IMG/VR virus record: IMGVR_UViG_3300021411_000020
Location: 1 to 24,786 of that record
Source: a virus
Taxonomy: Duplodnaviria; Caudoviricetes
Length of the DNA stretch: 24,786 nucleotides
Strand: one strand, 5' to 3'
Shown here: one piece after another, positions 68 through 22,634 of the stretch
Numbering within the stretch: position 1 is the stretch's first letter
How the letters are laid out: the number at the start of each line of letters is the position of its first letter
Program-made: the position numbers and the translations under genes
The notes under the pieces: model-generated
The model's database searches: none
What the model was told of the DNA's origin: nothing
What the model saw: only the letters and a program-made list of their open reading frames with translations

Positions 68-96
68 TTGACATGGACGCGTAAGCGGCCTAAGGT
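68..96 (+). promoter_or_regulatory. SigA/HrdB-type promoter, leaderless transcript
   Basis: TTGACA (68-73), 17-nt spacer, TAAGGT (91-96); ATG at 104 lies 7 nt downstream with no RBS. Confidence 0.75.
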
Positions 97-9131: not shown

Positions 9132-9153
9132 TCCTAACCGGAGGGCAATACCG

Positions 9154-10239
9154 ATGACTGAACTAGTATTGCCCTCCGGAACACGGGTCGGTGTAGATCC
9201 GGAAGGTGCGCGCCGGTTTCTCTTTCAAGGCGCACGACTTGTCAACCCGAGTCCACGGCCAGAACGCAAACGAGTCCCTCACGGTGACAAGGTCCGCGTT
9301 CTGGCCGTGGTCCACGGTTGGTTCCCGTACCTCGCAGCCGGGTCCGAGCGAATGCTCCAGCACATGCTGGACGCTCTGCCTCGGGACGAGTTCGAGGTTC
9401 ACATCCTCTCGGCAGGGGCCACGGACCCGAGACAGCACGGGACCGAGTACGAGTACGAAGGCGTAGGCGTGACCCTCGGGTATAACCCGCCCTTCACCCC
9501 GGACCTTATCGTGACGCACCACGGGCCATCGGCCCGAGTGTGCACCCAGCTCAAGGAAGAGTTCCCGGGTGTGCCCTTAGTCGCGGTCTTCCACAACGAG
9601 CGCTTAGACATTCCCGATATCCTGGCCTTGAACGCTGACTTGAACGTGTACAACACGAAGTGGGTTAAGAAGGCCATCGGCGAGAACGGTATCGTGATCC
9701 ACCCCCCACTCGAATACGAGCGCCATCACGTAGATAAGACCGGTAACGCGGTTACCCTGGTCAATCTCCAGAAGAATAAAGGTGTGGACACACTCCACCG
9801 CCTGTGCTCGCTCATGCCCGATGTCAAGTTCTTGGGCGTGACCGGCTCTCACGGCAAGCAAGAACCGATGCCGTTCCACAATCTCGAAGTTCTCCCCACT
9901 ACCCAGGACATGCGCGAGGTCTGGTCACGGACCAAGGTCCTTCTCGCTCCCTCGGAGTACGAGTCTTTCGGCATGGTCGCGGCTGAGGCCTGTGTCTCGG
10001 GCATCCCCACGATCGCGCACCCGACACCCGGCTTGGTTGAGTGCTTGGGCTTTGCCGGGATCTTCGTGGACCGAGACGACACCGCTACCTACGAGCGGGT
10101 CCTGAGACGTCTTCTCACGGACCGGCAGATGTACGAGGAGCATTCGGCCATGGCCTTTGAACGAGGCCGTCAGATCGTCGCTCAGACCCAACGCGAACTA
10201 ACTCGGTTCGTGAACGCTGTCAGGAAGTTGGTGAGGTAA
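9154..10239 (+). CDS. glycosyltransferase family 4 (GT-B fold)
   Basis: AGSERML, KNKG, LAPSEYESFGMVAAEACVSGIP (EX7E); RBS GGAGGG. Confidence 0.9.
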   Translation: MTELVLPSGTRVGVDPEGARRFLFQGARLVNPSPRPERKRVPHGDKVRVLAVVHGWFPYLAAGSERMLQHMLDALPRDEFEVHILSAGATDPRQHGTEYEYEGVGVTLGYNPPFTPDLIVTHHGPSARVCTQLKEEFPGVPLVAVFHNERLDIPDILALNADLNVYNTKWVKKAIGENGIVIHPPLEYERHHVDKTGNAVTLVNLQKNKGVDTLHRLCSLMPDVKFLGVTGSHGKQEPMPFHNLEVLPTTQDMREVWSRTKVLLAPSEYESFGMVAAEACVSGIPTIAHPTPGLVECLGFAGIFVDRDDTATYERVLRRLLTDRQMYEEHSAMAFERGRQIVAQTQRELTRFVNAVRKLVR

Positions 10240-12044: not shown

Positions 12045-12080
12045 GACCGGCAGGCGGAGTCGTGGACCGCCCCTTTACTT
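12045..12080 (+). terminator. probable terminator after major tail gene
   Basis: GGCGG..CCGCC stem followed by CCTTTACTT; preceded by two further hairpins. Confidence 0.45.
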
Positions 12081-12137: not shown

Positions 12138-12494
12138 ATGACCGCCCTCGCAGCCCTCCGCGCCAAAGCAGCCGAGAAGTACAAGCCGTACCCGATCGAG
12201 TTCGATGACGGTACCTCGGTCACGCTCCAGTCGATTCTTGAGCTTTCGAAGGATGACTTGGCCGCGTTCAACGCCAGTTCGAAGCGCCTTACGGCGCTGG
12301 AAGAGGACCAGGATCTGGATGTTCTCCGGGAAGAGTTCATCTCGATCCTCGCGGGTGTTTCCTCGGACAAGGCCCTGACCGCGTCCAAGCTCGAAGCTGA
12401 AGGTCTGGGCACTCTGACCGTGATCTTCGAGGATTACGCGGGCTCGCTCTCGGAGGGTACCAAAAGCGAGGCAATTGCTGGAACTACTAGCTGA
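12138..12494 (+). CDS. tail assembly chaperone (G-like)
   Basis: 118 aa between major tail and tape measure; RBS GGAG. Confidence 0.82.
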   Translation: MTALAALRAKAAEKYKPYPIEFDDGTSVTLQSILELSKDDLAAFNASSKRLTALEEDQDLDVLREEFISILAGVSSDKALTASKLEAEGLGTLTVIFEDYAGSLSEGTKSEAIAGTTS

Positions 12495-12876
12495 TTACGA
12501 AGGGCCCTTGACCGCTGACTTCCAGCGCGTCTACGGGCTGAGGCTCGTCCTCGCCGTGGAAACCCATGACGAGGACGAGCTTCTCGAACTCGTAATCTGG
12601 TTACCGGCCGCGAGCGCGCTCCACTCGTGTATCGAGGCCAAGGGCGATCCGACTAAGGCCCGGCAATTGTTCGGCTGGGACGCGCAAGCGGACCTTAGTC
12701 TGGGCATCGCTAACTTGATCGCGCACCAGACATTCGTACTAGCCCAGGTCAACTCCCAGAAACGTATCACGGAGCCCGAACCCATCACCGGGCCTCGGGC
12801 TAGTCACAAGCCGAGGTCGAACCTCAATGACGCAGGCGGGATCGCAAGAGCCCTGCTCCAAGCTCAGAAGGGGTAA
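12463..12876 (+). CDS. tail assembly chaperone extension (T-like), probably reached by frameshift
   Basis: LTADFQRVYGLRL..LP..S motif; overlaps the G ORF in the +1 frame; TTG at 12475 has no well-spaced RBS. Confidence 0.75.
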   Translation, partial: KARQLLELLADYEGPLTADFQRVYGLRLVLAVETHDEDELLELVIWLPAASALHSCIEAKGDPTKARQLFGWDAQADLSLGIANLIAHQTFVLAQVNSQKRITEPEPITGPRASHKPRSNLNDAGGIARALLQAQKG

Positions 12877-20322: not shown

Positions 20323-21234
20323 ATGACAGAGCTATTCGTAGACTACAGTGCAGGTAAGCTGACCTCGTCCGCGATCCGGGCAGCGAACTTCCAAGGCGCA
20401 CCGATCACGGGCGTTATCCGATACATCGACCACCCAAGCCTGCTCGGGACCAAGCACACGAGCGTGGCCGAATACACGGACCTGGTCTCGGCTGGTATTA
20501 AGGTACAGCTTGTGTTCGAGGTCGGTACCAATGACAGCGCTGGCGGGTACGCGGCGGGGGTCTCGTACGCTCAGCGGGCCAAGGCCGGAGCGGACCTGCT
20601 CGGGTACACGGGCGTGATCTTCTTTTGCAACGACTCACCCACACTCTCGTCCGTGGTGAACTGGCAAGCTTACCTAACCGGAGCGGTCTCGGTCCTGGGC
20701 AAGTCCCGGGTCGGAGCCTACGGGTTCCGGAACGCGATCGATTCCGCGTGGGGGCTCGTGTCCGCGTACTGGCAGTGTGGCGCGCTATCGGCCGTTCGCT
20801 CGGGCGTGAACTCGTACCAGTGGAACAACGGGAACATGTCCATTGCCGGTATCGTGTGCGACGTCAACTACGTGTACTCGTACTACACCCCTGCCGGACC
20901 AGGACCAAGCCCTATCTCAGGCTCTAGTGAAGACCCTTCGGAGGAATACACCGTGCAGATCCCAGCGGGAACGAACGTTCGACAGGCTATCCCGTGCGAT
21001 GGCAAGACCAAGATCTGTTTCCAAGCCGGATTTGGGCAGCCGATCGATGGGCACGTCTGGTTCATCGGCGATACCAAGCCCGGAGCCGGACCTCAGTATC
21101 TGGGGAGCTCCCCCCAGCTCGTGCACATCGATTCGGACAAGCCCGGTCCGGTCACGGTCCCGGACAACTGTCGCGTGGTCCAGGTCGAGCTGACGTGCGC
21201 GGTACCGTTCACGGCTTGGTGCGCGACCTCGTAG
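20323..21234 (+). CDS. endolysin, DUF1906 (GH25-like) catalytic domain plus C-terminal domain
   Basis: VDYS, GVIRYI, LVFE, IFFCND, GAYG, YWQ, CDVN motifs; Pro/Ser linker. Confidence 0.85.
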   Translation: MTELFVDYSAGKLTSSAIRAANFQGAPITGVIRYIDHPSLLGTKHTSVAEYTDLVSAGIKVQLVFEVGTNDSAGGYAAGVSYAQRAKAGADLLGYTGVIFFCNDSPTLSSVVNWQAYLTGAVSVLGKSRVGAYGFRNAIDSAWGLVSAYWQCGALSAVRSGVNSYQWNNGNMSIAGIVCDVNYVYSYYTPAGPGPSPISGSSEDPSEEYTVQIPAGTNVRQAIPCDGKTKICFQAGFGQPIDGHVWFIGDTKPGAGPQYLGSSPQLVHIDSDKPGPVTVPDNCRVVQVELTCAVPFTAWCATS

Positions 21235-21235
21235 A

Positions 21236-21612
21236 GTGAAGATCCTACCAGTTGCACATGCAATCGAGTAAGGAATCGATCTGGTCCTTGCTCCCGGTAG
21301 CGGACCCGTGTGACGCGTCAGCGGCTAAGCGGGGGAGCGTCAGGGTTACTATTCAAGGTCGATATCATGATCCCGTCACCGTACGGAGTCCTTCGGCCTG
21401 GCGGCCTAGTCCTCCGAGTGGAAGCGGATACATGGACTCGTACTTGTTCTAAGAGTCTGAAAATAAGACTTAGCAGGTCAGAGCCTGTTTCTGGTGGGAA
21501 ATCGAAGCGGATAATCGTGATCATAGGTATATGCCCGTTCCGGCATAAGCCCTGGTCAGAGGTGGTATCTAAACGACACTAAGTCTTTGACCTGTCACAG
21601 TAGGAAGGTCAC
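21236..21612 (+). ncRNA. candidate large structured non-coding RNA, family not recognised
   Basis: No credible ORF; nested helices found by eye (see findings); several G-U pairs favour the + strand. Confidence 0.55.
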
Positions 21613-21614
21613 GC

Positions 21615-21869
21615 TCAGTATCCGAGGGAGTGGGCAAAGTCCACGACCGAGGTACCGACCGGAACCGAGACCTGAACGTACGCGCCCAGGTCGTCTCCCA
21701 GGCTCTCACCGAAGAACACGGCCTCGGTCATGGTCTCGGCCGAGATGAAGTACTTACCGTCCGAGTCAATGACCAGAATCTCGTCTCCGCCCGCGTGAAC
21801 GATCTTGTTCACGTCGGCGTGGCCGTTGATCCGGCTGTGGCTGCTGGTGGGGGTGCTGTGGTCGCTCAT
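21615..21869 (-). CDS. hypothetical protein (84 aa), leaderless
   Basis: Phage-like codon usage on the - strand; own promoter 6 nt upstream of the ATG. Confidence 0.75.
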   Translation of the reverse strand: MSDHSTPTSSHSRINGHADVNKIVHAGGDEILVIDSDGKYFISAETMTEAVFFGESLGDDLGAYVQVSVPVGTSVVDFAHSLGY

Positions 21870-21875
21870 ATGAAA

Positions 21876-21904
21876 ACCTTAACCCGATCGTCTACCCTTG
21901 TCAA
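21876..21904 (-). promoter_or_regulatory. SigA/HrdB-type promoter, leaderless transcript
   Basis: On the - strand: TTGACA (21904-21899), 17 nt, TAAGGT (21881-21876). Confidence 0.78.
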
Positions 21905-21913
21905 GGGAGTTCC

Positions 21914-22141
21914 ATGAACAAGCTTCTCGTCCTTGTCCCCCAGTTCAAGAAGGCACTGGCCGCGCTCGTTGCCGCGATCGTGTCCGCAGGCGGTATCGCG
22001 GTTCTGTTCCCGGGTCTGTCCGGCAGCCTGGCCGCGACCATCACCGGGGCCGTGTCCCTGCTCGCTGTCGTGCTCGCACCCAAGAACAAGGTCGAGGCCC
22101 CCGGACTCGCTCCGGATCAGCCCACGAACCCCGGTTCGTAA
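21914..22141 (+). CDS. holin (2 TM)
   Basis: KKALAALVAA..; two hydrophobic helices, PKNK tail; RBS AAGGGAG; near the endolysin. Confidence 0.7.
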   Translation: MNKLLVLVPQFKKALAALVAAIVSAGGIAVLFPGLSGSLAATITGAVSLLAVVLAPKNKVEAPGLAPDQPTNPGS

Positions 22142-22181
22142 TCTCGGACCGGTTCCCTAACCGAACCCTTGGAGGTTTCAG

Positions 22182-22448
22182 GTGTGGGAAGCAGTGATCG
22201 TAGAGTTTGTTCGCGATGCTCTGCGACGTATCGAAAGGTTGGAACACCGAATGTCCCAGACCGATGACGCTATCGCGGCTATCGCCGCTTCCGTGAACAA
22301 GGTTGCTACTGACGTAGCCACGCTCCAGAGCGAGGTTGCGAACAGTGGGGACTCGGCTACCGCTGCGAAGCTCCAGCCGATCCTGGACCAGCTCAACGCC
22401 CTGGACGCGCTGACCCCGGACCCGGTTGAGGTTCCTCCGGCTTCGTAG
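22182..22448 (+). CDS. coiled-coil hypothetical protein
   Basis: GTG start with RBS GGAGG; alternative ATG at 22251. Confidence 0.65.
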   Translation: MWEAVIVEFVRDALRRIERLEHRMSQTDDAIAAIAASVNKVATDVATLQSEVANSGDSATAAKLQPILDQLNALDALTPDPVEVPPAS

Positions 22449-22453
22449 ATACA

Positions 22454-22492
22454 AGAAAGGCCCCGTACTCGCGATGAGTACGGGGCCTTTCT
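22454..22492. terminator. bidirectional intrinsic terminator
   Basis: 17-bp perfect stem AGAAAGGCCCCGTACTC-GCGAT-GAGTACGGGGCCTTTCT between convergent genes. Confidence 0.92.
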
Positions 22493-22496
22493 ATGT

Positions 22497-22634
22497 CTAG
22501 TCCTTTTTCTCGATAGCCTTGCGGAGACGCTCGTTCGCGTCCTTCTCTTCTCGGTTCAGCCTGTTGATCCGTTCCTCATCCTCGCGGACCTTACGCTGAG
22601 CCTCTTTGTCGTCCTTGGCGTTGTGACGGGCCAT
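22497..22634 (-). CDS. small charged hypothetical protein (45 aa)
   Basis: MARHNAKDDKEAQ..; RBS GAGAGAGG about 8 nt upstream. Confidence 0.6.
   Translation of the reverse strand: MARHNAKDDKEAQRKVREDEERINRLNREEKDANERLRKAIEKKD

Follow-up and report, generated by a model that had tools for sequence, protein, structure and literature searches.

Large multi-domain RNAs of phages and prophages that have no known function have been described, namely GOLLD and ROOL, and the same account reports that ROOL has pseudoknots and that expression of GOLLD goes up during lysis (PMC12286853). Mycobacteriophages L5, D29 and StarStuff make abundant non-coding RNAs that are supported by RNA-seq, and those of L5 and D29 are described as abundant and toxic, with a function that is not known according to that report (PMC5712189). 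The long RNAs of phage K are a further precedent for abundant phage non-coding RNA (PMC9241854).

Here we describe a candidate structured non-coding RNA of 377 nt on the + strand (21236..21612) of a virus record, where it lies between a lysin gene and a putative holin gene; the window referred to below is the whole stretch of DNA that was analysed (24,786 nt). The candidate is non-coding, folds with a z-score of -3.68 and has no match in Rfam. It resembles GOLLD and ROOL in being a predicted large multi-domain phage RNA, and the pseudoknots reported for ROOL have a predicted counterpart here, but it is shorter than GOLLD (many of the GOLLD members described are longer than 800 nt) and, unlike the case of GOLLD, its window is without a tRNA (PMC12286853). 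It also differs from both in having no match to either Rfam model and in being a single sequence found in an insert in an actinophage lysis cassette. Like the RNAs of L5, D29 and StarStuff, it would be an intergenic actinophage RNA, encoded in a genome whose late arm runs rightward and whose early arm runs leftward (PMC5712189). However, those RNAs are placed by the report at the right genome end behind Pleft, or in the 63-64 gap of D29 (PMC5712189), whereas the candidate lies in the late lysis unit, is predicted from its sequence and has no blastn similarity in a search of 50,697 phage records. That search returned matches of 19-29 nt only. Opposite-strand morons occur in phage lysis cassettes, and the locus resembles them in that a small reverse gene, equipped with a host-type promoter of its own and with a terminator-like hairpin, sits between lysis genes; unlike them, it carries a 377-nt folded non-coding block that lies downstream of the moron and faces it, rather than in a leader.

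The virus record is linear and 58% complete; its + strand carries siphovirus head and tail genes, and a leftward arm includes the DNA polymerase gene. Since the terminase and the polymerase have their closest matches in actinophages and the named relatives of the lysin come from Amycolatopsis, the host is likely an actinomycete. The lysin is an endolysin of the Rv2525c-like/DUF1906 glycoside hydrolase type (20323..21234, + strand; PHROG endolysin E 5e-13; PF08924); full-length homologues cover 99% of it, so the gene is full length and not interrupted by the adjoining gap. The putative holin is a hydrophobic protein of 75 aa (21914..22141, + strand), recognized by its hydropathy and by 71% identity to the gene directly 3' of the lysin in L027, the closest relative obtained, while a family search in PHROGs and Pfam was without a match. 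The late unit is closed by a terminator-like hairpin of 17 bp (22454..22492, + strand), seen in the fold and in hairpin-only Rfam hits below the gathering score. A small coiled-coil gene between the holin and this hairpin (22182/22254-22448) is not found in L027.

Several other features of the window were recorded in passing. Two glycosyltransferase-like genes (1677-2339 and 9154-10239), one of them in the head-gene block, are possibly involved in capsid or DNA glycosylation. A 14-bp hairpin with a 14-nt loop (9134-9175) encloses both the start codon and the ribosome-binding site of the glycosyltransferase-like gene that follows the capsid gene, with translational control as a possible role, and a second stem of 15 bp lies inside that gene at about 9250-9313. 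An overlapping pair of tail assembly chaperone genes, both phrog_393, occupies 12138-12876 in the usual frameshift arrangement.

The preliminary description of this DNA overlooked that the gap lies within an insert that also includes a minus-strand gene. The lysin and holin genes of L027 overlap at stop codon and ATG, and the alignments with the window stop at 21225 and restart at 21914 (amino-acid identity is 60% for the lysin, 71% for the holin and 88% for the polymerase). The insert of 688 nt (21226..21913), for which L027 represents the empty site, consists of the RNA gap, an 84-codon gene, a promoter and a new ribosome-binding site for the holin. Eleven further lysin loci were fetched, two of which end at the lysin stop; in all nine informative loci the next ORF begins within 43 nt. 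Three lysins at 93-99% identity (P0131-P0133) carry the same C-terminal extension encoded by the junction, with identical last three residues, a hint that the junction did not arise by misassembly.

The 84-codon gene (21615..21869, - strand) is accessory and moron-like, with a phage-like codon score of +0.29 and GC3 of 0.86. Its product has one full-length homologue (P0122, 65%, on a contig of 26.8 kb), no family in PHROGs or Pfam, and Atlas hits that stay below 0.9 with TM below 0.5; in the protein collection both this product and the holin are the sole members of their clusters. A housekeeping-type promoter, TTGACA-17-TAAGGT (21876..21904, - strand), ends 7 nt upstream of the ATG, and the gene is therefore likely leaderless. 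The same hexamers at the same 17-nt spacing recur at 68-96 (+ strand), also shortly upstream of an ATG, and both sites probably precede leaderless early genes. Similar promoter-plus-ATG units are seen in L027 on small reverse genes 3' of the holin terminator. A hairpin with a short U run behind it spans the 84-codon gene's stop codon (21573..21622, - strand; -20.4 kcal/mol; z -2.38 on the - strand and -0.25 on the + strand); it is the likely terminator of this gene and overlaps the 3' end of the candidate RNA, and the terminator scan did not pick it up. The candidate RNA probably came together with the 84-codon gene from a donor that had convergent late and early transcription units.

The gap itself (21235-21614) measures 380 nt, compared to 127 nt for the second largest gap in the gene list of the window, and its GC content is 52.6% versus 60.4% for the window. 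It is non-coding. With a codon model whose 19 training genes score between +0.11 and +0.39, the six ORFs that lie mainly in the gap or enter it score between -0.16 and -0.62, and none of the six gap translations is present in the protein collection. The longest of these ORFs lacks homologues at E values up to 10 as well as Atlas hits, and its recognition value is low. A search of all gap frames against Pfam and PHROGs yielded nothing better than E 0.05, and a decayed gene was rejected on that search. The initial observation that this is the largest gap in the region and holds no credible gene is borne out by codon use and protein searches as well as by size.

Comparison to known RNA families was made with Rfam 15, a collection that includes GOLLD, ROOL, OLE, raiA, HEARO, RNase P, 6S, Ms1, SRP and riboswitches. 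There were no matches in 21200-21650 at E values up to 10 and none in the whole window at E values up to 0.5. The absence of known signatures noted earlier agrees with these searches: ARAGORN found no tRNA or tmRNA genes, the Rfam models of RNase P and group I introns did not match the gap at E values up to 10, and those of group II introns (domain 5 with the catalytic triad, and D1-D4), circularly permuted introns included, matched neither strand of 20500-22500. By these comparisons, the candidate RNA belongs to none of the Rfam families tested. As for retron or DRT systems, the 38 window proteins scanned include no reverse transcriptase (the record being 58% complete), and the neighbours of the gap are a lysin, a moron and a holin. 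A phage attachment site was rejected, as the window contains neither an integrase nor a tRNA-like core and L027 is without the region. Antisense control of phage start sites by anti-RBS pairing was likewise rejected: in the 35 phage start regions of this 58% complete record the duplexes lie between -21 and -41 kcal/mol, where controls average -34 (sd 5), and only two of the 35 have a 9-nt match.

Folding was assessed against shuffled sequences, the check proposed in the preliminary description, and on the + strand the gap beats chance. The minimum free energy (MFE) is -142.3 kcal/mol (z -3.68; 0 of 100 shuffles as good), with a z-score of -3.6 on re-test, compared to -120.6 kcal/mol on the - strand (z -2.29; 2 of 100 shuffles as good). 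The + strand also folds better in each of three sub-domains, with z-scores of -1.26, -2.25 and -3.25 on the + strand versus -0.78, -0.95 and -2.55 on the - strand, consistent with the original suggestion of a + strand RNA. With respect to real phage DNA, however, the z-score of the gap is not exceptional: among 50 natural tiles taken from loci of related actinophages (mean z -1.5; 15 shuffles each), six reach -3.6 or lower, and three of 41 window tiles remain at -5.2 to -5.4 upon re-test, two of them containing the 17-bp terminator-like hairpin. Local folding is weak, with a best z-score of only -2.5 among 120-nt windows inside the gap, and the long-range pairs add no more than they do in shuffled sequences (25 of 150). 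Among the strongly folding tiles, 1201-1577 (z -5.2) is without a long terminator hairpin and contains a 116-nt gap (1323-1438) whose predicted fold is branched; Rfam gave no match there. In related phage loci, tiles at 12064, 15080 and 15834 of L013 and at 3016 of L002 have z-scores of -4.4 to -6.1 (15 shuffles each).

The helices named in the preliminary description are all present at the coordinates given there and can be enforced jointly, but the resulting nested model has an energy of -128.8 kcal/mol, 13.5 kcal/mol above the MFE. The ends are predicted to pair, as first proposed. The closing stem (4 bp, a 3x3 loop and 6 bp; 21236..21248 paired with 21600-21612, + strand) has a pair probability of 0.93-0.94, ends of this kind pair in 34 of 5000 shuffles when 15-nt ends are considered and in 93 of 2000 with 20-nt ends, and the stem reaches to within 2 nt of the stop codon on either side. 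Inside it, on the same strand, arm 1 is predicted to be a 5-bp hairpin (21251..21264; pair probability 0.95), arm 2 a 9-bp hairpin with a 10-nt loop (21266..21293; 0.95) and arm 3 a long irregular hairpin with two main helices (21296..21353; 0.88-0.97). Arm 4 is a large branched domain (21364..21521; z -2.25 on the + strand, -0.95 on the - strand), and arms 5 and 6 are hairpins at 21526-51 and 21554-92 (21526..21592 together; z -3.25 on the + strand, -2.55 on the - strand).

This arrangement departs from the first reading mainly at its "domain 1", which had been proposed as a nested structure. The inner helix of that structure (21290-95 with 21333-38) excludes the 9-bp hairpin 21266-93, which has a pair probability of 0.95. 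Nucleotides 21275-82 lie in the 10-nt loop of this hairpin, and their pairing with 21356..21363 (+ strand), an 8-bp duplex of -10.3 kcal/mol, would therefore form a pseudoknot; in the predicted fold the region reads better as a hairpin plus pseudoknot than as nested helices. As for "domain 2", which corresponds to arm 4, its outer 8-bp helix survives when the domain is folded alone, but the inner arrangement is ambiguous and the MFE structure is without the domain. A six-arm wheel in which domain 2 is enforced and the pseudoknot strands are set aside has an energy of -132.8 kcal/mol, to which the duplex adds -10.3 kcal/mol before loop penalties; the total is close to the MFE of -142.3 kcal/mol, with loop penalties not yet included.

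The hairpin-plus-loop pseudoknot motif, with thresholds that were set post hoc after inspection of the sequence, occurs in 5 of 3000 shuffles, in none of 478 window tiles and in 10 of 978 natural tiles, and was not found on the - strand of the gap; a looser definition of the motif is matched by 182 of 1000 shuffles. The six-arm wheel with its pseudoknot is a prediction from a single sequence. The candidate RNA also contains direct repeats of 10 nt (21421-21430 and 21504-21513) and 8 nt (21476-21483 and 21554-21561), with spacings of 83 and 78 nt, which permit alternative pairings. Internal duplication was rejected as their source: the self-alignment of the candidate is ordinary (42 of 300 shuffles), and a 10-mer repeat is found in 88 of 2000 shuffles.

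Searches for homologues of the RNA covered viral records and plasmids; they relied on exact patterns and single-sequence models and are weak in that respect. In eight related virus records, among which L027 and L028 are not included, blastn gave one match of 14 nt. Of the 7, 14 and 44 loci that came up in three pattern scans of viral contigs, not one extends past the seed, and two single-sequence covariance models, a type of model that is insensitive, matched none of 28 records (15 obtained via proteins and 13 via patterns). A plasmid search gave a single intergenic match in Rhizobium (56 nt, 81%, E 0.1). It was rejected as a homologue: it does not extend, its z-score is -1.0 and neither RNA model detects it, and model R1, which rested on this chance alignment, was discarded. 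Used as single-protein queries, the lysin, the capsid and the 84-codon protein brought up no viral relative in a set from which very close records may be missing, and a scan of the genome collection gave one chance match of 17 residues. No such RNA is described in the titles and opening lines of abstracts of the literature searched; the tables of candidate RNAs outside Rfam that belong to two papers (PMC5737381, PMC8040213) may contain it.

Taken as a whole, a selected RNA structure of some kind in the gap is the probable explanation, and a + strand non-coding RNA, as first proposed, is the best single reading of a sequence that is non-coding, folds better on the + strand and has ends that pair; the "ribozyme" part of that proposal is unsupported (47 of 901 shuffles, see below). 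More specifically, we favour an accessory late RNA that would be released by cleavage of the lysis transcript and work in trans, with a probability of roughly 0.4. Scans from the lysin to the holin found no promoter and no terminator on the + strand, and expression of the holin would need read-through. For these two reasons the RNA would be made late and within the lysis transcript, by transcription reading through from the lysin; the earlier suggestion of co-transcription with the late operon stands as far as the scans are concerned, with the read-through itself inferred. Host nucleases would then trim the candidate RNA out of the late lysis message. For a trimmed RNA to be stable, it would require paired ends and a 5' pseudoknot, and the predicted structure offers both, which is why a released, trans-acting RNA is favoured here. 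The closing stem and the pseudoknot would protect the trimmed product, which would accumulate as a stable RNA. In the most speculative step, it may function purely as an RNA, either scaffolding a host RNA-binding or anti-phage factor or acting as a decoy for it, by analogy with GOLLD, ROOL and the RNAs of L5 and D29. Its mode of action may also resemble that of the long RNAs of phage K. The candidate is dispensable given that L027, the closest relative, lacks it. Several observations weigh against the trans-acting RNA: six of the 50 natural tiles fold as well and no search gave a homologue, the sole clear promoter in the insert faces the opposite way, and nothing indicates a specific partner or target.

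The absence of homologues, the comparable folding of those natural tiles and the weak local z-scores also fit what we consider the most serious, though unlikely, alternative, namely that the gap is unselected or decayed foreign non-coding DNA brought in with the 84-codon moron, in which nothing but the minus-strand terminator hairpin has a role and all other pairing is due to chance. A GC content below that of the window and the absence of the region from relatives point in the same direction. Chance pairing would not readily explain ends that pair in register with both stop codons, or a pseudoknot motif seen in about 1% of natural tiles. Moreover, there is no trace of a decayed gene better than E 0.05, and 380 unused nucleotides would be odd for such a tightly packed genome.

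Somewhat more doubtful is a cis-acting mRNA element that remains on the lysin message, shielding its 3' end and setting the amount of transcript that gets to the holin, or insulating late transcription from the convergent early gene, with the consequence that lysis timing would be tuned. Its location would suit such a role, as the structure starts 2 nt past the lysin stop, the terminator scan is without a match from lysin to holin, and a strong opposite promoter adjoins the holin ribosome-binding site. Against this, 377 nt and six arms go far beyond the needs of a stabilizer, relatives couple lysin and holin directly, and 5' and 3' ends that pair with each other point to a free unit.

The orientation of that promoter raises the question of a functional RNA on the minus strand, transcribed from the promoter of the 84-codon gene and forming with its product a protein-plus-RNA pair of an antitoxin-like or decoy-like kind. 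The insert's sole clear promoter does drive the - strand, the gap and the gene are jointly missing in L027, and the z-score is -2.29; but folding is worse on this strand, both overall and in each sub-domain, the pseudoknot motif is lacking there, and the hairpin with the U run at the stop of the 84-codon gene would end the transcript near 21570. We regard the minus-strand RNA as improbable.

A divergent group I-like self-splicing ribozyme is less probable still. Helices in the order P3-P4-P6-P7-P9, followed by G21613, can be drawn on the + strand with near-canonical spacing (P3 21280-86/21476-82, P4 21289-95/21333-39, P6 21340-44/21456-60, P7 21465-73/21579-87, P9 21588-93/21606-11), the P7 candidate being a perfect 9-bp helix, and this order is absent on the - strand although 47 of 901 shuffles have it too. 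Group I introns have a P1 with a U-G pair at the 5' splice site and A-rich junctions, and splice with a guanosine cofactor. By eye, the gap offers no usable P1 with a U-G pair and a poor P8, and the junctions (J3/4, J4/5, J6/7 and J8/7) are without the conserved A-rich residues. The nested part has an energy of -121.8 kcal/mol, 20 kcal/mol above the MFE, Rfam Intron_gpI gives no match and no gene is interrupted. The least probable alternative, a small foreign protein gene of 71-90 codons with atypical codon use (21310/21367-21582, + strand), has in its favour a 93-codon open frame and a partial ribosome-binding-like sequence upstream of the ATG at 21367, and can be set aside on its codon score of -0.20 to -0.24, its GC3 of 0.5, its absence from the protein collection and the lack of a homologue, an Atlas hit or a high recognition value already given for the longest ORF.

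We conclude that the locus holds a credible orphan RNA candidate, predicted from a single sequence and unproven in fold and function, and that its value for now is that of a lead. The boldest form of the favoured interpretation, a new class of large phage RNA that is six-armed and pseudoknotted, is excised, moves from phage to phage as a cassette with the 84-codon gene and acts alone as a ribozyme or as a decoy of a host anti-phage or transcription factor, is doubtful. The size of 377 nt and the existence of a natural empty-site relative in L027 make the candidate convenient for transcription, probing and in vitro assay, and its position between lysin and holin means that any effect on lysis timing could be tested directly. 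If true, a new RNA class of soil-type actinophages would enlarge the set of structurally striking RNAs to which GOLLD and ROOL belong.
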